Assembly (NCBI GenBank): GCA_031549385.1
Contig: JAVBPW010000001.1
Location: 6,142 to 38,141 of the forward strand
Origin: Alphaproteobacteria bacterium
GTDB lineage: Bacteria; Pseudomonadota; Alphaproteobacteria; Rs-D84; SZUA-605
Direction of reading: 5' to 3'
DNA length: 32,000 nucleotides
The position numbers and the translations under genes are program-made. Each line of letters begins with the position of its first letter. Within the stretch, counting starts at the first letter, position 1. The notes beneath the pieces are model-generated. The model saw only the letters and a program-made list of their open reading frames with translations. It had not been told where the DNA came from and did no database searches. Below, one piece after another: positions 6,217 through 25,938 of this stretch.

Positions 6217-6260
6217 GATACGCTGTATTTTATCATATTTTTAATATGCTTTCAAGAACA

Positions 6261-6289
6261 CAAAAAATGGCAAGAAATAATCTTGCCAT
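6261..6289 (-). terminator. Rho-independent terminator downstream of thyA
   Basis: Minus strand reads AUGGCAAGA-uuauu-UCUUGCCAU followed by UUUUU. Stem arms are 6267-6275 and 6281-6289, directly after the thyA stop at 6292. Confidence 0.7.
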
Positions 6290-6291
6290 AA

Positions 6292-7071: not shown

Positions 7072-7186
7072 TTTTTAAAATTTGATTATTTACTTTTGAT
7101 TTTAGTTTTGTTGACATTTTAGTTTCTTTTTTGGAAAAAGCAATTATTTTATTGCCTGTTAGTTTTTTATCAGCAATAATAAGGAC

Positions 7187-8344: not shown

Positions 8345-11300
8345 ACTTGCAACTGAAATTCAAAATAAAGCTTCGAATCCTACTATATCTGCTTGGGTAG
8401 ATGCTTCTGCTGGAACTGGAAAGACTAAAGTTTTAACTGATAGAATTTTGAAGATACTTCTTTATGGCGGAGATATTTCAAAAATACTTTGTATTACATA
8501 TACAAAAAATAGCGCTAATGAAATGCTTAATCGATTGATTGAGACTTCTAAGAAATGGGCTATGATGAATGATGAAAAGTTGAAATGTGAATTGGGTAAT
8601 ATATTAGAAGATGAGTATATAAATGATGAGCTAATTTTAAAGGCTAGAACTTTATTTGCTGTTGTTTGCGAAAATATTGAAAGCATTAAAATTAAAACTA
8701 TTCACTCTTTTTGTGAAGAAATATTAAAGAAATTTCCTGTGGAAGCTGGAATTAATCCTCATTTTAAAAATATTCCTGAAAATGAACGAAAAGCATTTTT
8801 GAAAAATGTTATTAATGAAATATTCAAACAAAATGATGTTCAAGTTTTAGACCAAATAAGCTACTTAGCTTCATTTATTAACCAAGATGCGTTTGGAGAT
8901 ATTCAAAAAGATATTATTAGTAATGCTAATAAATTTGAAGAATTATTTAAGACTGATTTTAAAACTATTGATAATAAACTTAGAAAAACTCTTGAAATCA
9001 AAGAGACTGATTTAGATAAAATTAAGTTAGATTTTATAAAAAATCATATCGGACTGTTTAATGGGTTTGTTAACATTTCTTCTGCTCTTAGTGAGACTGC
9101 AAAAAAGTATGGAAGAGAATTATCAGAATTCTTATTACTTAATGATATTGATAAAATCAGAAACTTTAATTCTGTTGTTAGCATTTTTTTAACCGGAGAT
9201 AAAACTGTTAGAAAGACTCCTAAAGAAGATAATTTTCAAAATTTGGCCAATAAGGTTTTTGAATTTTATAAAGTTTTTGTTAATATTAATGTTTATAATC
9301 AATCAAAAGCTGTTCTTATTATTGCCAAGAAATTCTTAGACCAATATAAACAAGAAAAAGAAAAACAAGGGTTGCTTGATTTTGATGATTTAATTTCTAA
9401 AACTCTTGCTCTTTTGACTAAAAAAGATATTTCTTCTTGGGTTATTTATAAAATGAATGGCGGAATTTCTCATATTCTTCTTGATGAAGCTCAAGATACT
9501 TCACCCTATCAGTGGAAAATTATTGATGCTATATCTGAGAACTTTTTTGAAACTAATCCAAGAAATTTTGCTGAGTTTAAATCTATATTTATTGTGGGAG
9601 ATAGAAAGCAATCTATTTATTCTTTCCAAGGAGCGGATGTAGAAAACTTTGAAAAGTATTTTAAATATTTAGAAGATAAAATTGATAATTCTGATTATAA
9701 ATTTAAAAAAGTTGATATGAATGTATCTTTCCGTTCATCTGAGACTGTTTTGAATTTCGTTGATGAAGTGTTTAAAAAAGATGAAATTCTTAAAGGTGTT
9801 TCTTTAGATAAAGTTAAGCATATTAACGGAAAAGAACTTAACGGAAGAGTTGAACTTTACCCACATATCAAATTAAATGAAAAAGTCAAAAAAGACTATA
9901 TTGAAGGACATTTTGACGAAAAGTTTTATGAAAATAACTATTTGAATTTGGCGAAAGCTATTGCAATTAAGATTAGAAATCTTTTAGATAGCAAAATATA
10001 TCTTGCTGATCAAAAGAGATATTTATCAGAACAAGATATTATAATACTTGTTAAAAGCAGAAATAGAATTGTGAGCTATTTAAACAAAGAACTTAAAAAT
10101 CTTGATATAGAATTTGAAGGAATCGATAAATTTAAACTGCTTGATGATATGGCTACTGAAGATTTGCTTGCTTGCGGAAAATTTGCAGTGTTTCCTTTTG
10201 ATGATTTGAATTTAGCAGGTCTTTTTAAATCTCCACTAATTGGCGGAAGCGAAAAGGAACTTTTTGATCTGTGTTATGGACGTGGGGGAGAAAGCCTTTG
10301 GGATAGGATTTTAAATTCTTCTGATGTTGAAATCGCTAAAAAAAGAACAAAGTTACAGAAAATATATGAACATAGAAATGATACGCCGTTTGAATTTTAT
10401 TCATTTGTTTTAAATAAACTTGATGGAAAAAAATTATTGCTTAAAAGGCTCTCTATGGCTGCTCTTGATAGTATAAACTATTTTATAAATACAGCGCTTG
10501 AATGGAATAATAAAATTGTTTCTGATTTGTCTTCTTTCTTAGACTTCATTGTTAATGGAGATATAGAAATTAAACGTGAGGGACAAGGTAATAAACAAAA
10601 TGGCGTTAAAATCCTTACTGTTCATGGAGCTAAAGGACTTGAAGGACAATATGTGTTTCTAGCTGATACTTGTAAAGTTAAAAGCAATAAAGCTGAAGAT
10701 AAGTTTATATTTGATGAAGAATTGTTTTTTTGGTTCGTTAATAAGAGCTTTGTTAATGAACAAATTGAAAATTCTTTAGCTCATCAATCAGAAAAAGATA
10801 TGGAAGAATATAAAAGATTGCTTTATGTTGCTTTAACTAGAGCTAAAAGAAATCTATATATATTTGGATTAGAAAAGTGCGAGAAGAATTCTTGGTATGA
10901 AATACTTAGAGATACTTTTAATTCTTTAGATAAGAAAAAGATTGAAAGTGTTCCTGAATATTTGGCTGAATATTATGAAGAAGATGCTAAGATACTTTCT
11001 GTGGAAAATATTGTGGAAGAAGTATCTGAAATTATTGAAGAGAAAATTGAAAAGAAAAAAGAAAGTAATTTCAACTATCCTCAAGAACCTGAAATTGAAA
11101 CACCTGTTTTAAAGAATGACGTTGAGTTAGATAAAAATGAAGAATCTATTAGAATAGGAAATATTATTCATAAAATTATGCAAAATGTTTCTCAAATACC
11201 TGAAGATATTAGGCTAGATTGGGTTAGTGAAAAAATTGAAAATTCTGATTTAAATGATAATCAAAAAGAAGATTTTAATAATAGTTTGAAAACTATTTTA

Positions 11301-11585: not shown

Positions 11586-11787
11586 ATAGATTTTGTATTA
11601 ATTTTACTAAATTTCTTTGACCTTCAAGAAAATACAATTCCTCTTTAGTTGCTGATGATGGAAGAGTTTTATTTAAAGTTATCTGATTTAAATATTCTAA
11701 CACATTCTTTCCATTTATATTATTGAAAGTTAAAAAGAAACTTCTTTGTAATTGCTCTCTTTCTTGTTTTTCTCTGACGTTAAACAT
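11578..11787 (-). CDS. Small portal-linked phage protein (Bbp19-like pattern), function unknown
   Basis: The track start (11793) is GTG. The ATG at 11787 overlaps the portal stop (ATGTTTAA) and has GAAGGTG upstream. The pattern F.TFNN.NGKNVLEYL...EGQRNLV resembles the small proteins that accompany podovirus portal genes. Its stop region overlaps the addA stop convergently by 8 nt. Confidence 0.45.
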   Translation of the reverse strand: MFNVREKQEREQLQRSFFLTFNNINGKNVLEYLNQITLNKTLPSSATKEELYFLEGQRNLVKLIQNLSK

Positions 11788-13357
11788 TTGCACCTTCCAT
11801 TTGCTTTTGTGTTTTTTGTATCATCCATTCTTTATAATTTTCTAGATTTTCAGCTAAGACTTTATCATCTAAATTTATCAAGCCATCTATTAAATTTGCT
11901 GGCATTTTATGAACAAACTCTAAAACCTTGTTTTCATATTCTTCATCTTTTGTTAGTAAAAAACTTTTAGAAATATTCATCTTTTTAGTTATTGATTGAA
12001 GGATTTCTTCTTTGTCTATCATCTTTTCAAATGTTTGACCTAAGGCTGATACCATTTTTATCCAATCCAAAATATTCGATACATCATCATAGGACTTTAA
12101 CTGGCCTAGTTTTGATACATAATTTATCTGAATATCACTTTTAGAATATGGATCTTTAATCTCACCCCTTCTTTTCAATATTGAATATGCTCTTAAAATT
12201 AATGGATTTAATAACTCACTTTGTAATCTTCCATATGTTGCTCCAAGTACCTTCAACGAGATACTTGAACGTTGCAATACTTCTGTTGCTGACATATTAA
12301 AGTTTTGATTAAATGGCTGTAATTGTGTTGATAATAATGCAGATTTTATATTCTCTCTTATATCTTTTAAAATTAAGTCTGAAATATTAAAATCTGTTCC
12401 TACTTTCAACGGTGTTAGCCCACTTGACCCCATTGCTTTTGGTATTATTGCCCCTGGGGTTAGTTCTATATTTGCTGGATTTAGCACTCCATCATCGTCC
12501 GCTTGCCATACTCCGCTTACTGCTAAAGAAGCATTTTTTAATACTAATTCTACTATTTTATTTGCTGTTTTTATGTCAGGTAGCGCTTTCATTATTGGAG
12601 ATCTTCCATAAAAAACTGATGGAGATTTAGTAAAGCGGAAAATTATAAATGGATTTTGCTCGAATGTTCCTGATGCTAATACTTGATTGTCATTTTCTGT
12701 GAAAATAAAATATTTAAATTCATTGTTTTGCTTGTATACACATTCCACTATATTCAACTTAAAGTCTGAGTCATTCTTTTGCACATCTTCCATTTGCTTT
12801 GTCGGAATAAAATTTGAAAACTTTTCTTTTATTGCTGCTAATCCCATTTGACTTTTCTTATATATGGTTTCTGGATGGGTTGAATTGTTTTCATCTATAT
12901 AAATATCACGCATAGAAATTGCTTTGAAATTAAAGGCTGAATTTTGTCCTAATTGAGCTTCTTCAAATAATAAACATGCTGTTCCTATTACACATAAATC
13001 TATGTAGCATTGATGAATTGTTGAAAAGAAATTTGAGCGACCTAAATGAGCATATATCTTTTCTTGAGTTTCATGCAATGTGATTTCTGCTAATCTCTTT
13101 GATTTTCTATCTTTAGTTTCATAGTTTGAATGCAACTGAAACCATGATGAATAAGGTGGAGTCATTTCTGATAAAAGATGTGAAGCTAATTGGTCTACAC
13201 AATCTGATGCAGTTGAATCAAATAAATTATCTTTTCTTGCACATGATGCAAATACATTTTGAGAGGGAAATGTATAATTATAACATTCTTCCCAAAGAGA
13301 TTCTAAATCTCTTCTTTGCTCTTTTATTTTATAATATTTTTGTATTTTATTTTCCAT
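11780..13357 (-). CDS. Phage portal (head-to-tail connector) protein, T7 gp8-like
   Basis: 525 aa, against about 536 aa for T7 gp8. The N-terminus Y.IKEQRR....W.ECYNYTFPSQNVF....D.LFDSTASDCVDQLASHLLSEMTPP parallels T7 gp8 (YERLKNDR...CAQYTIPSLFP...GARGLNNLASKLMLALFP). An AAGGAG RBS lies 5 nt upstream. Confidence 0.85.
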   Translation of the reverse strand: MENKIQKYYKIKEQRRDLESLWEECYNYTFPSQNVFASCARKDNLFDSTASDCVDQLASHLLSEMTPPYSSWFQLHSNYETKDRKSKRLAEITLHETQEKIYAHLGRSNFFSTIHQCYIDLCVIGTACLLFEEAQLGQNSAFNFKAISMRDIYIDENNSTHPETIYKKSQMGLAAIKEKFSNFIPTKQMEDVQKNDSDFKLNIVECVYKQNNEFKYFIFTENDNQVLASGTFEQNPFIIFRFTKSPSVFYGRSPIMKALPDIKTANKIVELVLKNASLAVSGVWQADDDGVLNPANIELTPGAIIPKAMGSSGLTPLKVGTDFNISDLILKDIRENIKSALLSTQLQPFNQNFNMSATEVLQRSSISLKVLGATYGRLQSELLNPLILRAYSILKRRGEIKDPYSKSDIQINYVSKLGQLKSYDDVSNILDWIKMVSALGQTFEKMIDKEEILQSITKKMNISKSFLLTKDEEYENKVLEFVHKMPANLIDGLINLDDKVLAENLENYKEWMIQKTQKQMEGANV

Positions 13358-15549: not shown

Positions 15550-15625
15550 GGCCAGGTAGCTCAGTTGGTAGAGCAAAGGACTGAAAATCCTTGTGTCGAC
15601 GGTTCGATTCCGCCCCTGGCCACCA
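15550..15625 (+). tRNA. tRNA-Phe (anticodon GAA), CCA encoded
   Basis: GGCCAGG-TA-GCTC-AGTTGGTA-GAGC-A-AAGGA-CTGAAAA-TCCTT-GTGTC-GACGG-TTCGATT-CCGCC-CCTGGCC-A-CCA. This is a clean cloverleaf with one A-C mismatch in the T stem (15599 with 15613). Confidence 0.95.
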
Positions 15626-15897
15626 CTTATTTTATTTTCAATAAAATCATTGTTGGAGGAGACGTTTCCTCACCTTCGGTTCGATGTCCTCGGCAAAATT
15701 GCCTGCGGGCTTCGCGTACGCATTTTAAATGCTACTTGTCGGGCCGCCCCTGGCCACTACTTATTTTATTTTCAATAAAATCATTGTTGGAGGAGACATT
15801 TCCTCACCTGCGGTTCGATGTCCTCGCAACTTTCGTTGCTTGCGGGCTTCGCGTACGCATTTTAAATGCTACTTGTCGGGCCGCCCCTGGCCACCAC
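15610..15897 (+). repeat. Tandem direct repeat: two units (15610-15743, 134 bp; 15744-15880, 137 bp) plus a terminal 17-mer, each starting with a copy of the tRNA-Phe 3' end
   Basis: CCGCCCCTGGCCAC(C/T)AC occurs at 15610, 15744 and 15881. The units are near-identical except for a swapped hairpin: GGCAaaatTGCC at 15692-15703 versus GCAACtttcGTTGC at 15826-15839. They are GC-rich relative to the surroundings. Confidence 0.9.
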
Positions 15898-15923
15898 AAA
15901 CTTGAAGTTTGACATTTTATTTT
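15897..15923 (+). terminator. Weak hairpin plus T-run ending the tRNA-repeat array
   Basis: CAAACT-tga-AGTTTG followed by ACATTTTATTTT. Confidence 0.4.
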
Positions 15924-15989: not shown

Positions 15990-17165
15990 TTAATCTTCTA
16001 TGAATGGGTAGGATTTTACTGCTTCGGCTATCTTTTTTACTAATAATCTTTGATAGTCGTTTGTCTTTAATCGTTTCTCTTCTTCTCTGTTTGACATGTA
16101 TCCTAATTCAACTAATACTGATGGAATGTGAGACTTTAATACTGCAAATGGAGCGTATCTTTGATTAGTGTCTAATAATGATACACTTCTGTCCTTCTTA
16201 CATTTTTCGATTACTAACTTTGAAAAGATTATTGATTCCTCTTTTGTTTGTCGTAGTTTTAAATCACTTAACATACTTACTACTTTTTTATCATAATTTT
16301 TTGATAGTGATAAATCCATTAAGTCGGCTGCGTTTTCTCGTTCGGCTAGTCTTTGAGATTCTATGTCAGATGCTTTGTCTGATAATGTATATATAGATAA
16401 CCCCTTTGTATTTTCTTTTGGATGAGAGTCAGCATGAATTGATATAAATAAATCTGCCTTTTTCTTTCTTGCAAATTCACTTCTTTCAGCAAGCTGTAAG
16501 AAAGTATCGTTGCGACGAGTTAGATATACTTCATATCCCATGTTTTCTAATTCTCTTTCCAATAACTTTGCTGCTGATAAAGTTATTGTTTTTTCATAAG
16601 TTCCACCTTTTCCTATTGCTCCTGGATCTTTTCCACCATGACCTGCATCAACTACTATTATCTTCTTTGTATGCTTTTTCATTTTTTGATCTTGAGTTAT
16701 TATTGGAACGTTTGTAGTTTTTGGAATAACTTTTTCTTCGTCATCATCTTTATCTTTTGAACCTGATTTGCCTTTTTGAACAGTATCAAAAACTATACGA
16801 TAGTTTTTATTTGAACCTTGTGGATTTAATATAAAATGTTTTTCTATTTTTGCATCACCGTCTACATCAAGGACTACTCTGTTTATATTTGGTAATTTTC
16901 CATAACGAACATCTTTTACATAGTCTAACTTTGAACCTGAGCCATTTAACTTATAAGCTTTAGCTTGTTCTATATTTATTACTATGCGGTTATCCATATA
17001 TAAAAATGTATATTCTGGCTTGAAAGGAGTTTCTAATACAAATCTTACTCCACCCTCTGGACGTTTGCCTAATCTGTAGTCCATAGTCTCTGGTGCTCCA
17101 AATCCTTGCGAAAAGATTCCACATAAGAATAAAAAGAAAAATAATAAACCTTTTATTTTATTCAA
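15990..17165 (-). CDS. amiC: N-acetylmuramoyl-L-alanine amidase, AmiC-type (signal peptide, AMIN domain, amidase_3 domain)
   Basis: 391 aa. Signal peptide LLFFFLFLCGIFSQGFGA; AMIN-like N-domain (VRFVLE...RIVINI...RVVLDV); catalytic domain IIVVDAGHGGKDPGA...ADLFISIHADS...SVLVELGY. The start codon is TTG at 17165 and overlaps the stop of the upstream pilin-like gene. Confidence 0.85.
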   Translation of the reverse strand: MNKIKGLLFFFLFLCGIFSQGFGAPETMDYRLGKRPEGGVRFVLETPFKPEYTFLYMDNRIVINIEQAKAYKLNGSGSKLDYVKDVRYGKLPNINRVVLDVDGDAKIEKHFILNPQGSNKNYRIVFDTVQKGKSGSKDKDDDEEKVIPKTTNVPIITQDQKMKKHTKKIIVVDAGHGGKDPGAIGKGGTYEKTITLSAAKLLERELENMGYEVYLTRRNDTFLQLAERSEFARKKKADLFISIHADSHPKENTKGLSIYTLSDKASDIESQRLAERENAADLMDLSLSKNYDKKVVSMLSDLKLRQTKEESIIFSKLVIEKCKKDRSVSLLDTNQRYAPFAVLKSHIPSVLVELGYMSNREEEKRLKTNDYQRLLVKKIAEAVKSYPFIED

Positions 17166-17628
17166 ATTCTATATTCAGTATATTTACTGCCCCTTCTTGA
17201 CATTGTAAGTCTTCACTTGTTTCTGCATCTCTTCTTACTGCACTTCCGTTTAACCAAACTTCTTTTGCAGATTTCCATTCTGAAAGTCCATAGAATATAC
17301 AATCAGCTTGGGATAATTCTTCATAGGAAATTATAAAACCTTGACCACCTTCTGATGGACGAACTATAAATTCTTTTCCATATGCATTTCTGTTGTTTCT
17401 TAATGCTCCATATCTTTGTAAGTAAGATATAGTCAATAAACCGTAATCTGATTTTCCTTGGAATAATGTCTTTATGTTTTCTGATAAATCTTCAACTTCA
17501 TTTATTGTAGACATTCTTGTTAATTTTTCACGTGATCTTGTGTACATTGAAACAGCACCGATTGTTAATATTCCTACAATTGCGATAACGGCCAAAGTTT
17601 CCAACATTGTTCTTCCTGATTGTCTCAT
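17158..17628 (-). CDS. Type IV pilin-like (prepilin-type N-terminus) protein
   Basis: MRQSG/RTMLETLAVIAIVGILTIGAV has Gly at -1, Glu at +5 and a hydrophobic alpha1-N helix. Two C-terminal Cys (C..FY and LQC) are consistent with a D-region disulfide. The +1 residue is Arg instead of Phe/Met. An AAGGAG RBS is present. Confidence 0.7.
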   Translation of the reverse strand: MRQSGRTMLETLAVIAIVGILTIGAVSMYTRSREKLTRMSTINEVEDLSENIKTLFQGKSDYGLLTISYLQRYGALRNNRNAYGKEFIVRPSEGGQGFIISYEELSQADCIFYGLSEWKSAKEVWLNGSAVRRDAETSEDLQCQEGAVNILNIEFE

Positions 17629-17668
17629 TTTGTGCTCCTTGGTAAAATATCTTTGATTTTGTTAAAAG

Positions 17669-17677
17669 ATTATAGCA
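17669..17677 (-). promoter_or_regulatory. Candidate extended -10 promoter for the pilin-amiC pair
   Basis: Minus strand reads TGcTATAAT, about 40 nt upstream of the pilin ATG and immediately after the TerL stop. Confidence 0.4.
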
Positions 17678-17693
17678 TAAAAATTATTTTATT

Positions 17694-18551
17694 TCAAATA
17701 TTGAAATTAGTTTTTGCTTGATAAAATGCTTTTTTTTCATTTGAATTTATAATTACTTTTCTTGATAAACTTCCAAAGTTTGATTCTAAGCCTGTTGCTA
17801 TTGCATCTATACAATCATCTTTATTATTTTGACGCTCTATTTTGAAAGATTCTAATTCTTCAACTAACACTGAAGTAGTCAGATTTGCTTTTATATAAAA
17901 ATATGATGAATATAAAAGTGGTTGAATGTTTCTTATTATTCTCTCATTCTTGTTTTGTGTTTGGACTACCTTCTTTATAAATATAGGATAATTCATAGTT
18001 TTTGCTGTTTGAATTATCATCTCTGATAAGAATGCACCTATTCCATTTGTTTCAATTACTAAGTTGAATAAATTGTTCTTTTTCATAAAAATTATTACCT
18101 CTTCACACTGATACTGCGCAGATGAATTTTCATCTTCTTTATTTAAACATTTCAAATCATTTATATAACAATTACTTTGATCATCTTTGAATATTGCTAC
18201 TACTATACTTTTATCACTTGTTGCTTTACCTAATGATGGATCCCATGATACACATCCGAAAGTTAAATTTCGACCATCCAAAAAATATTTTTGTATTCCA
18301 TTACTTTGAAATAACTCCACATCTTTGTTGTATACATTTATTAGTGAAGTATCAAAAAAAATATTGTCCGTTTCTGGGACAATAAGCAACATTTGTGAAT
18401 TAAATTTTAATGGACCTGAACGATGTGCTATTTCTTTACATTTTTTAGGTGAAAATCGTTCTGGCCAAACTGAATTTCCTTTTTCATCAAAAAGCGGTAT
18501 TTTTAATATTTCAAACCCTTCTAAGAAAGGTGGAGATTTTGAAACTAACAT
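17694..18551 (-). CDS. Terminase large subunit, C-terminal (nuclease) half as a separate ORF
   Basis: 285 aa beginning ...IPLFDEKGNSVWPERFS..IAHRSGPLKFNSQMLL, then VSWDPSLGKATSDKS (first acidic nuclease motif region) and NKDDCIDA near the end. It has its own AAGGA RBS and ATG, with a TAA directly upstream in frame. Confidence 0.8.
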   Translation of the reverse strand: MLVSKSPPFLEGFEILKIPLFDEKGNSVWPERFSPKKCKEIAHRSGPLKFNSQMLLIVPETDNIFFDTSLINVYNKDVELFQSNGIQKYFLDGRNLTFGCVSWDPSLGKATSDKSIVVAIFKDDQSNCYINDLKCLNKEDENSSAQYQCEEVIIFMKKNNLFNLVIETNGIGAFLSEMIIQTAKTMNYPIFIKKVVQTQNKNERIIRNIQPLLYSSYFYIKANLTTSVLVEELESFKIERQNNKDDCIDAIATGLESNFGSLSRKVIINSNEKKAFYQAKTNFNI

Positions 18552-18787
18552 TTATTTCCTTATTTTTGCGAATCCAAAATGCTTTATCAACCTTTTAAAA
18601 GGCAACTTATCTTTGTTTGAAATTTCAATGATTTATAAAAAAAAGAACCCGGGGCAACTTTTTTATAGGAGAGGAGGAAGGAGAAAAAGAGAATGCCTCG
18701 GGATTTTTTATATAGACTCGGAGCCTATACGGTTCACACTTTAAACACCTGATTCTAAATTGTCAAGCATAAAGTTTTCTTTAGTAT
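18552..18787 (-). other. 236-bp non-coding insert splitting TerL, carrying a promoter-like element and a long hairpin
   Basis: Stops occur in all minus-strand frames. TTGACA-N17-TAAAGT lies on the minus strand (18766-18738). An extended hairpin at 18648-18702 (CCCGGGGCA...TGCCTCGGG plus an inner T/A-run stem) has an apical loop that is CUCCUUCCUCCUCUCCU on the minus strand and GGAGAGGAGGAAGGAG on the plus strand. T-runs flank it on both sides. Confidence 0.6.
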
Positions 18788-19420
18788 TTATTTATTTGCA
18801 TATATTGTGTCATAAGTGTGTGGAGTACCTATATAAAGCTGTAAACCATTGGGATTCAATATAAAATCTAGTTCTGATAGAAATTGGCGAAGATTTTCTC
18901 TTTTTTCCGAATTATCGCTGTTTTTTGGCACTTCGCAGTCATCACATATTATTATATCAGCCCTGTAACCCGTTATATTTCCCATTACTGATGCTGAAAT
19001 TACAGATGGATCTCTTAATTCTTTAGTTCTTTCAACTGTAAAACAGTCTGAAGCCCATTGCTCTTTCTTTAATGGGACTAAATTTTGGGTTAAAGGATGC
19101 TTTTGTATAATATGTTTTATATTTCGTACCATTTTTGTTGCCAAATTTTGTTCACATGACAAGATTAATATGACTAAATTTGGATTTTTATATAAAATCC
19201 ATGCACAAAATAAACCAACTATTGATGACTTGCCTGAATTTCGAAAAGCCATCAATAATCCCTTTTTAGTTTGTGATGTGTGTATTTTTTCCAACCAAAA
19301 TGCTATTTGTTTATGATGATTTGGGGTTTTGAATTCGTTTTGTTTGTTAAATATATCTATAAATTCATAAAAATTTACTTTGATTGCTTGATTAGATATT
19401 TCCGTAATCTTCGCTTTCAT
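18788..19420 (-). CDS. Terminase large subunit, N-terminal (ATPase) half as a separate ORF
   Basis: 210 aa with Walker A-like AFRNSGKSS, Walker B ADIIICDD, and an end at LYIGTPHTYDTIYANK, where an uninterrupted TerL would run on into the nuclease domain. The ATG lies inside the 3' end of the fibre-like gene (29-nt overlap). Confidence 0.85.
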   Translation of the reverse strand: MKAKITEISNQAIKVNFYEFIDIFNKQNEFKTPNHHKQIAFWLEKIHTSQTKKGLLMAFRNSGKSSIVGLFCAWILYKNPNLVILILSCEQNLATKMVRNIKHIIQKHPLTQNLVPLKKEQWASDCFTVERTKELRDPSVISASVMGNITGYRADIIICDDCEVPKNSDNSEKRENLRQFLSELDFILNPNGLQLYIGTPHTYDTIYANK

Positions 19421-20054
19421 TGTAAGCTTCCATGATAGTTCCTAAATCTTGAGAAAGTTCAGGAAATTTTGCTTTTAATAAATCAATCATATTTACTACC
19501 AAACCATAACAACTTCCATCGTTTGAATTATTTAACAACTTTTTCATATCTTCAAATATTATTTTTATATCTTCATATGTTTTTTCAGCTGATAAACTTT
19601 CATCAAGGAAATCAATTTCTGAATTTACTAATCGTTTTGCTGTTTCATCCCAGACTATTGCTTTTTTTGCTTCTGCTTGAGGAAGAGTTGTTTTTATTTC
19701 ACCTTTTTCTGGATCATATTTAATACATTTCTTTAGCTCCTCATTTGTCTGTCTTATTAATTCAACTATGTAATCCATATCTAGATTTAAATCTTGAGCA
19801 GATATTACCCCATATTCTTGTAAATCTGTTTGGCGAACTATTTTTAAATTCCTTTTTATAACTATTTTACTATTTAATGCTGGTGGAATGGAAAATATTA
19901 TTTGCCCATAATCATCACTGAGCTCTGTATGGTAACCACCCTCTTGCTTTAATCCATTTATATAAATTTCTAAATTTTCTGGTTTAAAAACTTTAAAGTT
20001 AAATGAAAATTCTGTTGTTGTACCATTTGCTTTATATGTTACTTGATTATCCAT
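19392..20054 (-). CDS. Tail fibre protein, T7 gp17 N-terminal adaptor-domain-like, short
   Basis: 220 aa. VTYKANGTTTEFSFNFKVFKPENLEIYINGL....Y......G.IIF..P......I.IKR.....R.TDLQEYGVISAQDLNLDMD parallels the T7 gp17 N-terminus (LTYQLDGSNRDFNIPFEY...VVVTLIG...IELRRVT...VDFTDGSILRAYDLNV). A GGAGG RBS is present. Confidence 0.75.
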   Translation of the reverse strand: MDNQVTYKANGTTTEFSFNFKVFKPENLEIYINGLKQEGGYHTELSDDYGQIIFSIPPALNSKIVIKRNLKIVRQTDLQEYGVISAQDLNLDMDYIVELIRQTNEELKKCIKYDPEKGEIKTTLPQAEAKKAIVWDETAKRLVNSEIDFLDESLSAEKTYEDIKIIFEDMKKLLNNSNDGSCYGLVVNMIDLLKAKFPELSQDLGTIMEAYNESEDYGNI

Positions 20055-20544
20055 TTGTACCTCCGCTGATTATTGTAGTTGTGCTTTTTGTTGTCTTTGG
20101 CATTGCTGAACTTACTGTTGTTACTGTACTGCCTACTCCAGAAATTAGATTTCTTCTTTTTGACATTAAATTCTTTGATAATGTGTTATCTAAATCTCTT
20201 GTCAAATTTTTTGAACTTGCTTCATAGTCTTGTTGATTACTATATTGTCTTTTAGCAGATTCTTCTTTTATATTACTTAACACTGCTGATGAAGATTCTG
20301 AATCTATTTCAATTTGATTAGCTCCAAATCTTGCACTTTGTTCTGCTAATGTTCTTTTTAATAATGAATTTTCTGTTTCTTGTTGCTCCTTATAATTTCT
20401 GTCCAAAGCTTCTTTTTTAATCTCATAATCTTCCATTATTGTTTTCTTTTGTTTTTTATTTTCATCTGCATTTAAGGCTTGATCTATACCTTTAAATATT
20501 AAATCAAATCCTGTTGCTGCTACCGTTGCTGCTGCTGTTGCCAT
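20047..20544 (-). CDS. Hypothetical virion-associated protein (coiled-coil, Ser/Thr-rich tail)
   Basis: 165 aa with an AAGGAGG RBS. It occupies the position of the T7 gp13-16 internal proteins but is far smaller. I recognise no motif. Confidence 0.4.
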   Translation of the reverse strand: MATAAATVAATGFDLIFKGIDQALNADENKKQKKTIMEDYEIKKEALDRNYKEQQETENSLLKRTLAEQSARFGANQIEIDSESSSAVLSNIKEESAKRQYSNQQDYEASSKNLTRDLDNTLSKNLMSKRRNLISGVGSTVTTVSSAMPKTTKSTTTIISGGTNG

Positions 20545-20556
20545 TTAAAACCTCCT

Positions 20557-22446
20557 TTAAGATAGTGCTTTAATTTTTAGTGAAATACTTTGCATACAAA
20601 ATTTAAATGGTGCATCACTTTGTATTTTCCAAAGTGGAGTGTTTCCATTTGTTTTATATCCAAATGATGACATTACATAATTACCTGTGAATTCTGTTAA
20701 ACCTTTTCCATAACTACGTTGCTCCAGTTGTAATTTGTTTAATCCAAATCCTGTGTCTATTTCTAATATTGCTGATTCTTCTAATCTTATTGATAATTCT
20801 ATTAGTCTGTACTTTTTGTAACCACCGCCTGATAACTTAGTAAATGGAAATGGAACAATCGTATGTTTATATGGATAGCCTATACAATAACTTGAAACAG
20901 GTTCGTTTAAAATCATTGTACTTTCTTCTATTTTCTTTTTTGAATATATAAAATCATCAACTTTAATATAAATTTCTTCTCCTAAATATTCACTTAATTC
21001 ATAAATACCTGTTATACTTTGTTCTTTTGAATGTTCGTATTTTGCACAATCTAAATATAAATCGTCTTCAAATTTTTCCAGATAAAAGTTTTCATTTCTT
21101 TTAGTTATTACATAGGTATTATTATCTAATGTTGTTGAATATAAAAACTTCCCATATGTTTGATAGTTACTCCAAGATAAAACTTGATTCTGAGGAGATA
21201 CTGTTAATACTGCCATTTCTCCATTTGATAAAACTACATACAATTGTCTTTTAGACTTATTATAAGTCATATCAGTTGGATCTTTTATTAAATGTGAACA
21301 AAGTTGCGATAGATTGTTTGATGTATAATTTGCTACCACTTGTCCATATACAAATTCTCTGATTTCTTTTTTGTCTTTTGATACAAAAATTGTTGCTGAT
21401 TCTATTTGTAACACTGGTAAAAATCTCTCTGTTGGACTTCCTATTGCTGTTTGCTTCGATAAAGATACTGTTGATGGTGTTATCAAATTTGTTGGAACTA
21501 TCCATTCACCACTGTATGTTAAAATTTGTAAATGAAGGGCTGAAAATATTGTCTGAATTTCTTCCATACCTGAAGATAGGAGACAGAATTCTATTGCTTC
21601 ATCATCTAACCCTTGTCCGCAATCAAAGTTTCCATATGTAAAAGTTTTTGAAAACCATAACTTATTTGGCTGAGTTGGAGTTGCTCCAAAAACTAAACGA
21701 CCTTGATGAAAACATGAAGTTTTTGGATACCCTCTTGTATCAGAAAAAGCAGCCTCTTTGTATGAACCTTGAGCAATATTTTTAAATTGCTTTAAGACCT
21801 GAATGTTTGCTTTTACTAAAGAAATTATACTTATAATTTTAAAAGAACCTTCGTTAAATATAAATTCTTTATTAATCATGTCTGATGTAAAAAAATCTAC
21901 ATTAGATGTTATTGTTGTTGCCCCTGTTATTCCAGCCGGTGTAAATAAAACACTCTTTTTATCATCAAATTTATAATAAGGGTAAAGACTTGTTCCGTAT
22001 GTGTCTTGAGCGAACACAAAATTCTTAAACACAAAACCATAAGTTTTTTCATAGGTCAAAACTTTTGGATGGTGGTTTTGATGAGTGAAAATCATTTCTG
22101 ATAAATTCTGAGATGTTTGTATTTGATCGATTTCACTTTCTTTATATGGAGTTTCTAAAATATCAAATAACGCATCGTCTTTGTATAAATACATTAGACC
22201 TGGAAGTAATACTATTAGATAATTATCATTACTTTTTAATGTAAAACTGAATAATTTTCCCTTTTGTGGAAGTTTATGGACTAGTTTTAATCCGCCTCTT
22301 CTTTTTATTGCTCCACTCTCTGTTGTGTGAGCATTTTGTAAAACTGATACCCCGTTTGAATGTGCTGCTAAATCAGCACGAGATGTGTAACTTTGAGCAA
22401 GTTCTCCATTTAAGAAAGAGTTTTGTGTGTGTGTAAATATTGTCAT
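20557..22446 (-). CDS. Tail tubular protein B-like (T7 gp12-like)
   Basis: The track start (22452) is TTG. The ATG at 22446 lies 6 nt after AAGGAG. The N-terminus NSFLNGELAQ....RADL.....G...L.N......G.IKRRGG follows the pattern of the gp12 N-terminus (KNLKGGISQQPD..RYPDQ....NG........GLQKRPP). Its position after gp11-like also fits. Confidence 0.6.
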   Translation of the reverse strand: MTIFTHTQNSFLNGELAQSYTSRADLAAHSNGVSVLQNAHTTESGAIKRRGGLKLVHKLPQKGKLFSFTLKSNDNYLIVLLPGLMYLYKDDALFDILETPYKESEIDQIQTSQNLSEMIFTHQNHHPKVLTYEKTYGFVFKNFVFAQDTYGTSLYPYYKFDDKKSVLFTPAGITGATTITSNVDFFTSDMINKEFIFNEGSFKIISIISLVKANIQVLKQFKNIAQGSYKEAAFSDTRGYPKTSCFHQGRLVFGATPTQPNKLWFSKTFTYGNFDCGQGLDDEAIEFCLLSSGMEEIQTIFSALHLQILTYSGEWIVPTNLITPSTVSLSKQTAIGSPTERFLPVLQIESATIFVSKDKKEIREFVYGQVVANYTSNNLSQLCSHLIKDPTDMTYNKSKRQLYVVLSNGEMAVLTVSPQNQVLSWSNYQTYGKFLYSTTLDNNTYVITKRNENFYLEKFEDDLYLDCAKYEHSKEQSITGIYELSEYLGEEIYIKVDDFIYSKKKIEESTMILNEPVSSYCIGYPYKHTIVPFPFTKLSGGGYKKYRLIELSIRLEESAILEIDTGFGLNKLQLEQRSYGKGLTEFTGNYVMSSFGYKTNGNTPLWKIQSDAPFKFCMQSISLKIKALS

Positions 22447-22456
22447 TGCCAACTCC

Positions 22457-22858
22457 TTAATATAAAAATAGTGTTTGTGGTAAGTTTGTGTAATTGCTTC
22501 GAAGATCGAGATGTATAAATGTTTTTGCTATACCAACTGAAAAGCCTAAATTAAGTGCACACCTTATTAGCTTTGCATTTAAAATCCCGTTTTGTTTTGC
22601 TATATCAATTGCACAAGTTGCTAAATTTTGCTTTTCATCAAAAATGTGAAAACTGTTTTTTACTCCACCTATTTCTTGATTATAAGATAAACTTCTGCAA
22701 CATGAATTAACAATCATAGGATGTCCATAAAGCAATCTTAATTCTTTTAATTTTTCTGCAAAACTACAAGCTAGTATTCCGTCTTTTGATTTTTTACATT
22801 GAAGTTCCTTTATGGAAAAGAGAACTTTTCCATTGTCGTCTTTTATATCTTGTAACAT
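22457..22858 (-). CDS. Peptidase M15-family cell wall peptidase (endolysin-type)
   Basis: 133 aa. SCCRSLSYNQEIGGVKNSFH...CAIDI...FIHLDLR fits the M15A pattern (S.YRS...N...GG...S.H ... A.D ... H.D zinc ligands). Confidence 0.75.
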   Translation of the reverse strand: MLQDIKDDNGKVLFSIKELQCKKSKDGILACSFAEKLKELRLLYGHPMIVNSCCRSLSYNQEIGGVKNSFHIFDEKQNLATCAIDIAKQNGILNAKLIRCALNLGFSVGIAKTFIHLDLRSNYTNLPQTLFLY

Positions 22859-22859
22859 A

Positions 22860-23429
22860 TTAACCTCGGCAGTCTATTAATGAGAATTTAGTTATTTTTT
22901 CTGGGGTCTTTTGTTGAGCGTCTATTAGTTTTGCTAATCTTTCTTGGCTTATACAAACTTGGTTTAAGTAACTTGATTTTGCATGGTCTTCTGTTAATGG
23001 AAGACAAAATTCATAAGATAAAAAATCCACTAATAAATTTATGAAAAATGGAGGCATTTGACTTTCGTCAATATCCTGAATCACTTTTATTGTTACTATG
23101 TCTGAGTTTGCATAAAGTCGGTCTTTCATTATTTTATATGAAATGTCTGAAAAATTATCCCCTGCCCCACATGAAATTATCCTTAAAATATTTTTAGGTA
23201 ATAAATAGGTATATGAATAACCTTGAATTGCAGGTTCATCTAATGATGCTGGTTGAATTAAATTGCAAGCAAATGTCCATGGGTATGATGAAAGCAATTT
23301 TTGTTTTACTATTTTATAAAAAGATTTTGAAATTTTAGCTTCTGCTGTGTTTTGATTAAAATTTGATATTGTATTTGCACCTATTTTAAGCAATGCCATA
23401 GAGCAAATATCTATGTTTGTGTAATTCAT
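22860..23429 (-). CDS. Tail tubular protein A-like (T7 gp11-like)
   Basis: 189 aa, against 196 aa for T7 gp11. DICSMALLKIGANTISNFNQNTAEAKISKSFYKIVKQKLLSSYPWTFA parallels gp11 [46 protein letters not shown]. Confidence 0.7.
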   Translation of the reverse strand: MNYTNIDICSMALLKIGANTISNFNQNTAEAKISKSFYKIVKQKLLSSYPWTFACNLIQPASLDEPAIQGYSYTYLLPKNILRIISCGAGDNFSDISYKIMKDRLYANSDIVTIKVIQDIDESQMPPFFINLLVDFLSYEFCLPLTEDHAKSSYLNQVCISQERLAKLIDAQQKTPEKITKFSLIDCRG

Positions 23430-23452
23430 TAGAAATACTCCTTTTAAAGTTT

Positions 23453-23475
23453 AAAGGGGGCAAAAAGCCCCCTTT
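23453..23475 (-). terminator. Strong GC hairpin after the capsid and 76-aa genes (probable partial terminator)
   Basis: AAAGGGGGC-aaaaa-GCCCCCTTT, a 9-bp stem, is the most GC-rich hairpin inside the cluster. It sits between the 76-aa ORF and the gp11-like gene. Confidence 0.5.
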
Positions 23476-23477
23476 TA

Positions 23478-23708
23478 TTACATTGCTACTAATGTTACTG
23501 CTGTGTCAGTTACTGCTGAAACTGCTGCAATTACACTTTGATCACTTGCATTGATGAAAATAAAATCATTAGCATTAATTACTTTTGACATGTCTGCAAA
23601 ATATGTAGATGCCATTGTTACTGCTTTTGTATCTGTTGTTTTATAGTGCCACAATGTGAAGCCATTTGCATAGGCTAGTACGCTTAAATTGTTTGTTTTA
23701 AAAGCCAT
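23478..23708 (-). CDS. Small hypothetical phage protein downstream of the capsid gene
   Basis: 76 aa with an AAGGAG RBS and tight spacing after the capsid gene. I recognise no motif. Confidence 0.4.
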   Translation of the reverse strand: MAFKTNNLSVLAYANGFTLWHYKTTDTKAVTMASTYFADMSKVINANDFIFINASDQSVIAAVSAVTDTAVTLVAM

Positions 23709-23719
23709 AGTATTCTCCT

Positions 23720-24553
23720 TTATGCTACTATTGCTGCGTCATCTTTGCAGCTGATTTTTACTATTCCACTTTCGTCAATTACACATGAACCTTGGCTCAT
23801 TGAGTTTGATATGAAATGTGATTGGCGATCGCCTTGCCATGAAATGTCAGATTTTACTTCTGAACCTACAGCATGACCTATTGCTGTTTTATGATAAATA
23901 AAGCATTGGCGATTTCCTGAAATTAATGGAAGATTGTTGTGTAAAATCCAAATTACTCCCATCCATTTTCTTGCTTCACTTCCATTTATTAATGCATAGT
24001 TTTCACCACAATATTCTGATGAAGTGAATTCTTTAATGCTTAATAGTTCTGACCATTGATGAACACCTACTACACCAAATCTTTGACCGTCGTCTGGACA
24101 TGAAAGTTCATTCAATTTTTCAATTGCTTTCATAATCTTTTCTTTTGTTAGACCTTTTGTGTCCGCTGCTACTTCATTTGTTGCTTTTGAAAGTGCACTA
24201 ATGATTAATTCATCTGTTTTTCTTCCTAATGCATATGCTCCAGCTGAAGCTATTACTTTTCTTTCGTCTGTGTTTGTTTTTAATTCATCCATAGCATCGC
24301 ACCAATCGCCTGCATAAAAATCTTGCAAAACACATTCTATTGGTGTGTGTTGAATGTTCATTGTTGGAACTAACCCATGACGAGATTTTGTTGATGCTGT
24401 GCCTTTGCCTACTCTTTGGAATGTAGTTGAAGAACCTTTTACATCATTTTTTACTCGCACAGTGTTGCGTAGTTTTGTTCCGTATTGTTGATATTGCAAA
24501 TGTACATCTGCTTCAAATTGTTTGATAAATGCTTGATCTATTGTTAAAGACAT
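23720..24553 (-). CDS. Major capsid protein
   Basis: 277 aa, positioned after the scaffold gene. The N-terminal pattern F..QFEADVHLQYQQ.GTKLRNTVRVKN.V.GSSTTFQRVGKGTASTKSRHG is one I recognise from podovirus and prophage capsid proteins. An AAGGAG RBS is present. Confidence 0.7.
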   Translation of the reverse strand: MSLTIDQAFIKQFEADVHLQYQQYGTKLRNTVRVKNDVKGSSTTFQRVGKGTASTKSRHGLVPTMNIQHTPIECVLQDFYAGDWCDAMDELKTNTDERKVIASAGAYALGRKTDELIISALSKATNEVAADTKGLTKEKIMKAIEKLNELSCPDDGQRFGVVGVHQWSELLSIKEFTSSEYCGENYALINGSEARKWMGVIWILHNNLPLISGNRQCFIYHKTAIGHAVGSEVKSDISWQGDRQSHFISNSMSQGSCVIDESGIVKISCKDDAAIVA

Positions 24554-24642
24554 TCTTATTCTCCTTTAATTAATTATTTAATTGTCGACTTTATACCGGA
24601 GGGTGAGTCTTTATTTATTGTTATCCTTGCGGGCAATAGTTT

Positions 24643-25272
24643 TTATTTGTATAGTTTTTCAAATCCTTCTTTTACCTTTTGGCAAAATTCCGGATCATTT
24701 TCTTTCCAATATTTTGGATTATTCATTAGCTTCTTTAGTGAATCTAATGTTAATTGTTTTGATGGGGATGATGTTTCGTCTAAGATTTTAGGCTCTGATG
24801 AATTCAACATCTTATATAGTAATAATACTCCGTCATATGATGAAGCAAGAACTTCATATAAATCTTGAGATAGATTATTGTCTGCATATGTTTGAATTTG
24901 AGATGCTACTTTTTCCCAATTTTCTTGTCCACCAAAATAATTTTTTAAATTTTGTAATTGTGTTTGTTGTTTTAAATCAAATTCTGTTTCTTGTATCTTT
25001 GTATTTAAATTCTGATTCAAAATATCATGAACACATTTTGCTTGTGATTTTGTAAATTTATTTTCAAATAGTTTCTTACCTATAGCTTCATCTTGAAAAT
25101 CTAGTTCATATTCACTTGGGTCTTGAGGTAAATCTAAATTTATTTCTTCTTGATTTGATGTGCTTAGCTTTTTTTCTAAATCTTTATATGATTTCAATAA
25201 ATTTTTTGCGTTTAGTTGACCTGTTTCTTTATCCAAAAATTTTTCTGGTATCTTTATTTCTTGATCTGTCAT
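24643..25272 (-). CDS. Capsid scaffolding / assembly protein
   Basis: 209 aa, acidic and helical. The N-terminus IPEKFLDKETGQLNAKNLLKSYKDLEKKL is typical of phage scaffold proteins, and the gene sits immediately upstream of the capsid gene. Confidence 0.6.
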   Translation of the reverse strand: MTDQEIKIPEKFLDKETGQLNAKNLLKSYKDLEKKLSTSNQEEINLDLPQDPSEYELDFQDEAIGKKLFENKFTKSQAKCVHDILNQNLNTKIQETEFDLKQQTQLQNLKNYFGGQENWEKVASQIQTYADNNLSQDLYEVLASSYDGVLLLYKMLNSSEPKILDETSSPSKQLTLDSLKKLMNNPKYWKENDPEFCQKVKEGFEKLYK

Positions 25273-25280
25273 AATTGCTC

Positions 25281-25466
25281 CTATTTTAAATTTTCATCAA
25301 TAGATTTTCTTAAGAAAACTATCGAAAATAATGGGAAGATTGTGGAAAATAAATTAGCTAAATCTAAATCTCCTAATAAATATCCTGAGACTGCTGAAAT
25401 AATTCCTGTGATTGATACAAGGTATGTTTTTTTACCTTTTAACATTCCACCGTTTAATAAATTCAT
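25281..25466 (-). CDS. Holin-like small membrane protein (two TM segments)
   Basis: 61 aa with two hydrophobic stretches (YLVSITGIISAVSGYLLG and LFSTIFPLFSIVFL) and a charged C-terminus. It is adjacent to a cell wall hydrolase. Confidence 0.45.
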   Translation of the reverse strand: MNLLNGGMLKGKKTYLVSITGIISAVSGYLLGDLDLANLFSTIFPLFSIVFLRKSIDENLK

Positions 25467-25476
25467 TTTAATTCCT

Positions 25477-25938
25477 TTATATTTTGTAAAATAAATATTG
25501 TTTTATTTGAGTTTGGTAACCTTTTCCTTCTGCGAGTTCTGGAAATTCGTCTTCGTGATGGTAAAAAGTAGATCCAAAGGTTGTATCCTTTAAAATTCCT
25601 CGTAGCACTTTACCGGCTAGCCTTGAACATATTGCAAATTCAGGATTGGTTATTGTGGTACCTGGAAGTTTATTTTTTAATTTTTGATAAAAGTTTTCAT
25701 CTAAACAAATTGAGTCTATGGTTTTATTAGCATGATTTGAATTTTTAATTCTGTTTGCTATTGTGCATGCTATTGCTTCTTTTAAAATTAATGAAAGACC
25801 ATAAGATTCATGATATATGGTAAAGGCTAGTATAAATTGTTGGTGTTCTTTCTTTTGACAATCTTGAAGTAATATATCTTTATATTCTTTGGTTGCATTT
25901 GATTTTGTGAAATCACAAAATTTTAAACTATTTAACAT
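25477..25938 (-). CDS. SleB-like cell wall hydrolase
   Basis: 153 aa. AFTIYHESYGLS...EAIACTIANRIKN resembles the Hydrolase_2 (SleB) core motif (..Ea..e...g..AVa.vi.NR). Confidence 0.55.
   Translation of the reverse strand: MLNSLKFCDFTKSNATKEYKDILLQDCQKKEHQQFILAFTIYHESYGLSLILKEAIACTIANRIKNSNHANKTIDSICLDENFYQKLKNKLPGTTITNPEFAICSRLAGKVLRGILKDTTFGSTFYHHEDEFPELAEGKGYQTQIKQYLFYKI

Follow-up and report, generated by a model that had tools for sequence, protein, structure and literature searches.

In a 32,000-nucleotide stretch of an alphaproteobacterial genome (GCA_031549385.1, contig JAVBPW010000001.1, positions 6,142 to 38,141 of the forward strand; hereafter the window), the T7-type large terminase (TerL) is encoded not by one gene but by two open reading frames (ORFs), both on the minus strand, of 210 and 285 amino acids (aa) and 495 aa in sum. 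The 236-bp spacer between them holds a putative small-RNA gene. With a probability of about 0.78, we interpret this locus as a naturally split T7-type TerL with a small-RNA gene between its two genes, and not as a disrupted gene. The comparative data described below indicate that this TerL is an old, conserved two-gene version of the enzyme and not a broken gene.

The upstream ORF, TerL-N (18788..19420, minus strand), is a stand-alone ATPase half of 210 aa with a Walker A motif (FRNSGKSS), a Walker B motif (IIICDD) and a GTPH coupling motif. Its C-terminus reads ...LYIGTPHTYDTIYANK, ending in DTIYANK before a TAA stop codon at 18790-18788. The downstream ORF, TerL-C (17694..18551, minus strand), is a stand-alone RNase H/RuvC-like nuclease half of 285 aa, in which the WDPS, ETNGIG and DDCIDA motifs are intact. 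It starts in a different frame from TerL-N with an ATG at 18551, which has an AAGGA ribosome-binding site 5 nt on its 5' side (18557..18561, minus strand) and an in-frame TAA at 18554-18552. The spacer contains several stop codons in each of the three minus-strand frames. An earlier note on this DNA had described a TerL split by 236 bp at the ATPase/nuclease boundary, and its ORF ends, AAGGA site, ATG, upstream TAA and 495-aa sum were all confirmed. TerL-N matched the Pfam family Terminase_6N at 28.1 bits (cut-off 22) and TerL-C matched PF22530, the T7 RNaseH-like terminase nuclease, at 35.1 bits (cut-off 27). Residues 45-208 of TerL-N also matched T7 gp19 (4bij, E=1.5e-23) and the PhiV-1 terminase (8dgc, E=1.5e-25). 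The two halves are deposited as two proteins, TerL-N being a separate 210-aa entry (P0123).

We aligned both ORFs with 13 intact homologues of ~495 aa, a check that the earlier note had proposed, and they fitted these proteins end to end with no conserved residues missing at the junction. In this alignment, the break falls in a linker of variable length between the motifs GTPHTxxTIYxx and PFLxGF. With T7-type TerLs (T7 gp19 and PhiV-1; 4bij, 8dgc), the window's terminase shares the additional-strand catalytic-glutamate (ASCE) ATPase with its Walker A and B motifs, the GTP(H) motif and the acidic residues of the RNase H/RuvC-like nuclease, and the gene order of the cluster (portal, scaffold, capsid, tube, nozzle, terminase) is likewise T7-like. 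The TerLs of cultured phages, which are 24-28% identical, are in contrast all single genes, so that the window's terminase has the ATPase and the nuclease domain of a T7-type TerL but not its single polypeptide. An 8-nt direct repeat, AAATAAAT, lies over the TerL-N stop codon and the TerL-C start codon (window ~18786-18797 and 18550-18557), and in one relative (L009; related loci are given by such L numbers) ATAAAAT is found at both equivalent junctions (about 4605-4615 and 4871-4880). The repeat may be a relic of the target-site duplication of an original insertion, or a chance occurrence in AT-rich DNA.

The split was found to be shared by many relatives. When the ATPase half was used as the query, many proteins of 195-212 aa came up, encoded on long contigs (up to 365 kb). 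Among 114 cluster representatives, 43 were ATPase-only genes whose products end at most 8 residues from TIY; many of these genes lie on contigs of 40-365 kb, and almost all of the 43 carry DTIY at the place where intact proteins have (Y/F)TIY. In a neighbour-joining tree of the ATPase domains, 13 split genes formed one clade apart from the 13 nearest intact TerLs. A search with the nuclease half, which was exhaustive over 1.84 billion representatives, yielded at least 16 standalone clusters. The nearest relatives of TerL-C were standalone proteins of 272-300 aa (38-58% identity), ahead of every full-length TerL (34% or less), and the standalone nuclease proteins all start with M followed by 3-15 residues and (P)FLxG[FY]. 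On viral contigs, 75 of 80 related loci have an intact terminase. In a T7-like viral contig (L151, IMGVR_UViG_2767802241_000001), the ATPase and nuclease parts of the terminase at 9176-10831 are out of frame or interrupted; a frameshift, a sequencing error or another split may account for this.

The arrangement of the two genes varies within the clade. Two further diverged lineages (L009 and L108) have the same order as the window, with TerL-N, a spacer of 268-406 bp carrying the RNA, and TerL-C. In four loci (L021, L023, L029 and L036), TerL-C comes immediately after the portal gene and shares the strand of TerL-N, from which it is separated downstream by ~5 kb that include small-RNA genes, tRNA-Phe and ftsZ, and in two others (L095 and L107) the gap from TerL-N to TerL-C is 3.4 kb. 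Between lineages with the same split architecture, TerL-N is only 55-63% identical. The closest relative (JGI 3300042603; L007 and L008) has halves 79% and 58% identical to those of the window. Its two contigs end 22 nt and ~87 nt from the TerL junction, and the spacer of that genome is not visible because the assembly breaks on both sides of the junction; a repeat at the junction may have broken it. Taken together, the comparison indicates that TerL was broken in the ancestor of a large clade and that the halves have since been separate genes with their own start and stop codons. The clade is made up of podovirus-like structural clusters on the chromosomes of Alphaproteobacteria that are host-associated and mostly AT-rich.

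Both halves have been maintained by selection. The ratio of nonsynonymous to synonymous substitution rates (dN/dS) was 0.05-0.2 for TerL-N and 0.15 for TerL-C (L021 versus L036), and the proportions of nonsynonymous (pN) and synonymous (pS) differences between the window and L007 were 0.26 and 0.82. The ratio of C-domain to N-domain identity was 0.57-0.86 in split pairs and 0.76 on average in intact pairs; the split pairs thus match intact TerLs, and their nuclease half shows no faster decay than it does there. Residues D104, E167, D245, D246 and D249 of the RNase H-like site were invariant among 5 standalone nucleases and 23 full-length homologues. While searches of the PDB by sequence with the nuclease half, as a single sequence and as a profile, returned nothing useful, the AlphaFold model of TerL-C (predicted local distance difference test score, pLDDT, 81.3) had the T7-like PhiV-1 terminase as its top fold match (E=6e-10), followed by RuvC/Ydc2 and then by the terminase nuclease domains of T4, RB49 and Sf6. 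The nuclease half is therefore predicted to fold as a terminase nuclease. As judged from substitution patterns and alignments, both halves are under purifying selection with all catalytic motifs kept. A functional two-polypeptide TerL, which had been one of three options in the earlier note, is thus strongly favoured by the shared split, selection, motifs and predicted fold. In many relatives, the two genes lie kilobases apart.

Within the spacer, we annotated a putative CU-loop small RNA of ~95 nt (18637..18731, minus strand), its 5' end placed from a promoter-like element and its 3' end from a U-tract. The element, TTGACA-N17-TAAAGT (18738..18766, minus strand), is of the sigma-70 type with 10/12 consensus matches; it is present as had been noted earlier, though the match alone is not above chance. 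The putative RNA begins with a 5' hairpin of 9 bp, UAUAGGCUC/GAGUCUAUA (18710..18730, minus strand), which appears in both the minimum free energy and the centroid structure. Its sequence is not conserved, and relatives have other 5' hairpins. There follows a terminator-type hairpin (18648..18702, minus strand), supported by folding and by a covariance model, in which the GC-rich stem CCCGAGGCA / UGCCCCGGG of nine positions with one mismatch encloses a CU-rich loop. The loop of 37 nt (18657..18693, minus strand) reads UUCUCUUUUUCUCCUUCCUCCUCUCCU..., includes ...CUCCUUCCUCCUCUCCU..., is largely unpaired in the predicted fold and has a CCUCC core that resembles an anti-Shine-Dalgarno sequence. 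The U-tract after the hairpin, UUCUUUUUUUU (18637..18647, minus strand), has a counterpart in all family members and is the putative site of intrinsic termination.

The 97-nt putative transcript folded with z = -3.1 (1/200 shuffles); the entire 236-bp spacer folded no better than its shuffles (z = +0.16). What had been described as a 55-nt extended hairpin at 18648-18702 does exist and is better described as a nine-position stem with a 37-nt loop, and the insert, previously called GC-rich, is enriched in that direction only slightly (0.33-0.36 versus about 0.25-0.31). The only consensus intrinsic-terminator-like site in 17000-20500 was found at 18362-18384 (minus strand), inside the TerL-C coding sequence (TATTGTCCCAGAAACGGACAATA, then a T-run).

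Homology of the spacer element was then assessed with a covariance model, R1, built from 13 relatives with the window left out. R1 matched 18630-18713 on the minus strand at 34.9 bits (E=2.6e-7), and the next best match in the window scored 15.9 bits. It is this match, together with the constant placing of the element in relatives, that puts the spacer feature well beyond chance. As a negative control, we took 51 loci from a metagenome scan that had a chance CU-rich match to the 19-mer of the window's loop; none of them matched R1, indicating that the model is not merely detecting pyrimidine tracts. Across 25 family members, 94.5% of the cells in the alignment were paired and compensatory changes were found at 10 of 12 pairs, a level reached by none of 500 shuffles, and slid controls were 34-55% paired. 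The stems of relatives vary in sequence with pairing kept, as in CCCTGTTGCG/CGCAACGGGG, CCTGTCGCG/CGCGACAGGG, CCCTGTTGTA/TACAACAGGG, TCCCGAAGCC/GGCTTCGGGA, CCTAAGGCACTT/AAGTGCCTTGGG and CCTCGGAG/CTCCGAGG, beside CCCGAGGCA/TGCCCCGGG in the window. Their loops are nearly invariant pyrimidine tracts (e.g. UUCCUUUUCUCUCCUUUCCUCCUUCUCUCCU). The 21-nt loop CTCCTTTCCTCCTTCTCTCCT had 23 exact matches in 185,579 species genomes, where it was identical in ~14 metagenome-assembled genomes of Alphaproteobacteria or Rickettsiales, the remaining matches being chance low-complexity tracts in unrelated phyla.

The element was found downstream of the TerL-N stop codon in ten relatives (L009, L010, L013, L018, L023, L027, L033, L035, L036 and L108), all of which have a TTGACA-N17-TAnnnT promoter with it, including examples with TATAAT or TAAACT and often with an extended -10 TG. 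The family can thus be described as a promoter, between one and three hairpins that differ from subclade to subclade, a GC-rich stem with a near-pure pyrimidine loop of 28-37 nt, and a U-tract, with about 60-110 nt from promoter to hairpin; the window has a promoter-like sequence at this spacing. A second copy of the family was detected by the covariance model in most loci. The copies are not tied to the terminase, since some are convergent to TerL-N (L018 and L035), some lie beside a mipZ-like gene (L017 and L022) and some are in tandem (L029). No Rfam family was found for the spacer or the relatives' elements at E up to 10, and at gathering thresholds the whole window gave only tRNA-Phe. We therefore consider it supported by the comparative evidence that the spacer belongs to a family of small-RNA genes that is conserved, multi-copy and uncatalogued in Rfam. 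Family membership, stem covariation and the conserved promoter and terminator all favour the earlier option of a spacer RNA with a CU-rich loop. The RNA is not an insert private to this TerL, being one of a multi-copy family of chromosomal small-RNA genes. The search for further copies of the insert that had been suggested found no second copy in the 32-kb window, whereas the RNA family itself is multi-copy in relatives.

Several other observations were made on these RNAs. In the gut clade, the RNA directly after TerL-N is ~130 nt long with four hairpins and an extended -10 promoter and has no Rfam match (L010 4697-4848 and L013 3178-3310; also L018, L023, L027, L033, L035 and L036). Its hairpin GCCGAGACGACCCCUCAUUUCGGC is invariant and is kept even in the GC-rich L023. 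In L013, two direct repeats of ~110 nt (cccgtttgccagacgagtccacaaatcatactattctaaacttctcgctaacaccgctcgtcgttaagaatagg) lie at 3300-3520 between two small-RNA genes. Copies of the CU-loop RNA adjoin a ParA-like ATPase gene in L017 (about 6158-7311) and L022 (3341-4386); the protein, VIVVGNEKGGSGKST..., was judged by reading to resemble MipZ, which positions FtsZ. Other copies adjoin ftsZ, and from these positions a link of the CU-loop RNA to cell division is possible. Three copies within 1.2 kb were found upstream of ftsZ in L029 (1-1151). The L029 contig is binned as Bacteroidales, probably by mis-binning, because its genes match the alphaproteobacterial cluster.

For a naturally split TerL with an intervening small-RNA gene, we propose the following mechanism. 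The ATPase and nuclease polypeptides would assemble on the portal without a covalent bond and there package and cut DNA, and this packaging would serve a domesticated particle resembling a gene transfer agent (GTA). The RNA would be a stand-alone transcript of ~95 nt that pairs with purine-rich Shine-Dalgarno regions and represses translation in trans, and its hairpin would also terminate transcription arriving from TerL-N. Expression of the nuclease gene would then depend on read-through or on a weak promoter belonging to it, and would be uncoupled from that of the ATPase and probably lower. In L009, only ~35 nt separate the U-tract from the TerL-C ATG, so read-through must contribute there.

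The role of a trans-acting anti-Shine-Dalgarno repressor is one that we infer by analogy with the cuckoo/CcsR family. Cuckoo/CcsR RNAs have 2-4 hairpins side by side, with the motif CCUCCUCCC in every loop (PMC4615179). Like the present family, they (RSs0680, alpha-r14) are alphaproteobacterial, multi-copy and sometimes in tandem, and have variable, covarying stems with a conserved C/U-rich, anti-Shine-Dalgarno-like loop; L108 has two such hairpins in a row. On the other hand, CCUCCUCCC is absent from the spacer, the loops here are near-pure pyrimidine tracts of 28-37 nt versus about 9 nt, the window has a single CU-loop hairpin that doubles as a terminator, and no Rfam model matches. When the loop was compared with 26 translation-initiation regions, no specific target emerged and leaders with a strong Shine-Dalgarno sequence scored best, with the MlaC-family gene, capsid and portal as the best-scoring predicted partners. 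The earlier note had suggested that the loop pairs with the ribosome-binding site of the nuclease half. Duplex prediction places the TerL-C initiation region among the weakest partners (-5.5 kcal/mol, rank 21/26), and regulation of the nuclease by the RNA is for this reason unsupported. A 12-nt perfect complement to the loop inside ftsZ (E = 0.36) was dismissed as chance.

A number of points weigh against the interpretation of a naturally split TerL with its own small-RNA gene. Both proteins and the RNA are known here from sequence alone, and the relatives are metagenome-assembled genomes throughout. The tree separating split from intact TerLs is a neighbour-joining tree with few intact sequences and carries no bootstrap support, the dN/dS values come from pairs in most of which dS is saturated, and the alignment of 25 members that gave the covariation had been fitted to the model. 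Promoter-like matches such as that in the spacer occur at chance level in the AT-rich DNA of the window (23 sites versus 20.9 expected from shuffled sequence). Target prediction for the RNA is non-specific, in that a good score goes to any strong Shine-Dalgarno sequence and a poor one to TerL-C. In the split-clade loci L014/L041 and L016, neither a nuclease gene (within 10 kb of TerL-N) nor a CU-loop RNA nearby was found. These lineages may have lost the nuclease, and the ATPase may function or persist there without it; if so, the two halves need not always work together. (In L041, which with L014 belongs to GCA_016937865.1, the portal gene follows 14 nt after TerL-N and the cluster order is rearranged.) Finally, the separated domains of T4 gp17 reportedly keep their ATPase and nuclease activities and do not package DNA.

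We weighed these data against four other explanations. The hairpin might be only the intrinsic terminator of the TerL-N (late) operon in an ordinary intergenic spacer, with no independent small RNA, the CU-rich loop being conserved for another reason, e.g. as a protein-binding or processing site at the mRNA 3' end. The copies adjoining TerL-N do lie always directly downstream on the same strand and end in a U-tract, and the promoter match in the window is not above chance; however, TTGACA-N17-TA(T/A)A(A/C)T stands at the equivalent place in every relative examined, frequently as an extended -10 with TG, and other copies are away from TerL-N (convergent in L018 and L035, beside the mipZ-like gene in L017 and L022, in tandem in L029). 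A loop of 21-31 nt that is identical across genomes whose TerL-N proteins are ~55-75% identical is also unlike a plain terminator, and we regard this explanation as unlikely. We find it more improbable still that the RNA is a cis-acting leader or attenuator of TerL-C, with regulated read-through of the CU-loop terminator from the spacer promoter. TerL-C directly follows the element on the same strand in the window, L009 and L108, and the ~35 nt between U-tract and ATG in L009 leave no room for a separate promoter, but behind most family members there is, on that strand, either nothing or a tRNA or a further small-RNA gene. A search, not made in depth, also gave no alternative antiterminator pairing.

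That TerL is a pseudogene into which a small mobile element, for example a miniature inverted-repeat element, has recently inserted, as the earlier note had also considered, seems very improbable. The position of the spacer exactly between the two domains, the 8-nt direct repeat at both junctions and the multiple copies of the RNA family within genomes would all suit such an insertion. At 30% GC, however, a repeat of 8 nt made up of A and T only is weak evidence, terminal inverted repeats were not seen, and neither a repeat search nor short-query blastn found the spacer a second time in the 32-kb window. The same architecture recurs across the clade, in lineages with TerL-N only 55-63% identical, and we rejected the pseudogene because both halves are intact and under purifying selection, their active-site residues are invariant and the predicted fold matches. 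The restoration of a single TerL, with the spacer as an intron or the halves joined by a split intein, is the alternative to which we give the least credence, and we rejected it as well. Phage terminase genes are known hosts of introns and inteins, and the two ORFs would be in frame again once 239 nt, comprising the stop codon and the spacer, were removed. Against this, no group I, group II or other Rfam match was found in 18300-19100 at E up to 10, the spacer as a whole has no exceptional fold, and in relatives the halves lie 3-5 kb apart with ftsZ and portal genes between them. There are also no extra residues that could be intein pieces, TerL-N stopping and TerL-C starting at the linker.

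The split TerL belongs to a podovirus-like gene cluster that is interleaved with host genes. The window is a chromosomal segment of 30.6% GC with the host genes dnaJ, thyA, an AddA-like helicase-nuclease gene, ftsZ, tRNA-Phe, amiC, mlaC and tkt, among which lie genes for portal, capsid, nozzle-like protein, M15 peptidase and cell-wall hydrolase and the two terminase genes. The annotation of the window includes neither integrase nor replication genes. Upstream of TerL-N, Pfam matches and orthology to the relatives' clusters defined a structural cluster (19392..25938, minus strand) with genes for a cell-wall hydrolase, a scaffold-position protein, capsid (23720-24553), a tube-position protein, an M15 peptidase and a nozzle-like protein of 631 aa, and further genes of 165 aa and 220 aa. 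The portal gene (Head-tail_con, Pfam E=4e-99; 11780..13357, minus strand) is set apart from this cluster by ftsZ, tRNA-Phe, amiC and a pilin-like gene. The essential division gene ftsZ and tRNA-Phe likewise lie inside the phage-like cluster, between the ATPase and portal genes, in L010, L013, L021, L029 and L036 (11780-25938 in the window). Relatives with an intact TerL have a compact cluster of ~11 kb between host genes, consisting of portal, Bbp19, scaffold, capsid, tube, nozzle, terminase, hydrolase and a GTA-type holin (GTA_holin_3TM match in one relative). In the split clade, the cluster keeps its synteny with tRNA-Phe and ftsZ between genomes that share only 35-60% protein identity, which suggests long vertical inheritance, unusual for a prophage, as in gene transfer agents.

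In the window, tRNA-Phe (GAA; 15550-15625, plus strand) is followed by two direct repeats of 134-137 nt that are 96-97% identical (15550-15912 in all), each ending with a copy of the tRNA 3' end (CCGCCCCTGGCCACCA/CTA); a spurious 139-aa ORF overlaps them. The repeats look like stacked attachment-site scars of integrations at tRNA-Phe. Downstream of TerL-C, the subclade of the window conserves an AMIN-amidase (AmiC) gene and also a protein of 154-156 aa (window 17158-17628, L007 931-1377, L009 7385-7849). The latter had no Pfam match, and its N-terminus, MRQSGRTMLETLAVIAIVGILT..., was judged by reading to be type IV pilin-like.

Like the GTAs of the RcGTA type and FpGTA, the cluster is a chromosomal set of genes for head, tail, packaging and lysis that lacks genes for replication and integration, and it is syntenic with host genes across diverged genomes. 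It differs in its T7/BPP-1-like podovirus ancestry, as opposed to an HK97-like siphovirus, in its split terminase and in the interruption of the cluster by ftsZ and tRNA-Phe. A 2026 paper calls the Faecalibacterium FpGTA the first podovirus-like GTA (PMC12946183), and we found no podovirus-like GTA of Alphaproteobacteria in the open-access literature. A more far-reaching reading, which is conceivable and which we hold to be doubtful, is that the cluster is a vertically inherited podovirus-type GTA of host-associated Alphaproteobacteria with a split motor and the CU-loop RNA as a translational switch or pRNA-like motor cofactor. The switch would set the nuclease-to-ATPase ratio or particle production, and the pRNA-like cofactor would be the most extreme form of this idea.

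The gp16 packaging ATPase of phi29 has no nuclease activity and is paired with a dedicated small RNA (pRNA), and in herpesvirus pUL15 the ATPase and nuclease parts lie in two exons separated by other genes and are re-joined by splicing. The present system differs from the phi29 motor in that no pRNA Rfam match was found in the spacer or the relatives' elements and a nuclease gene is retained, and from pUL15 in that nothing suggests re-joining of the window's halves. For split terminases, the only remark that we found in the open-access literature concerns the Parabacteroides phage phiPDS1, whose large terminase was annotated as two coding sequences, with its authors leaving open an assembly or genetic-code artefact (PMC10773633). 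This phage is a single lytic siphovirus of Bacteroidales, for which conservation, selection or an intervening RNA gene were not shown by the authors. Annotation pipelines probably mislabel split halves as partial or frameshifted terminases.

Models of packaging in tailed phages treat TerL as one chain in which the ATPase and nuclease domains communicate via a hinge. A large clade with separate, selected domains is a natural experiment on the need for covalent linkage, because these models assume one chain and the T4 gp17 domains are said not to package when separated. The clade also supplies many sequence pairs for co-evolution analysis and reconstitution. The small RNAs form an uncatalogued, highly conserved family with copies beside ftsZ, the mipZ-like gene and the particle cluster, and their hosts are gut and other host-associated Alphaproteobacteria without cultured representatives. 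For these bacteria, the split would let the cell set nuclease and ATPase levels independently, which bears on how a domesticated particle might switch from genome-specific to non-specific packaging.

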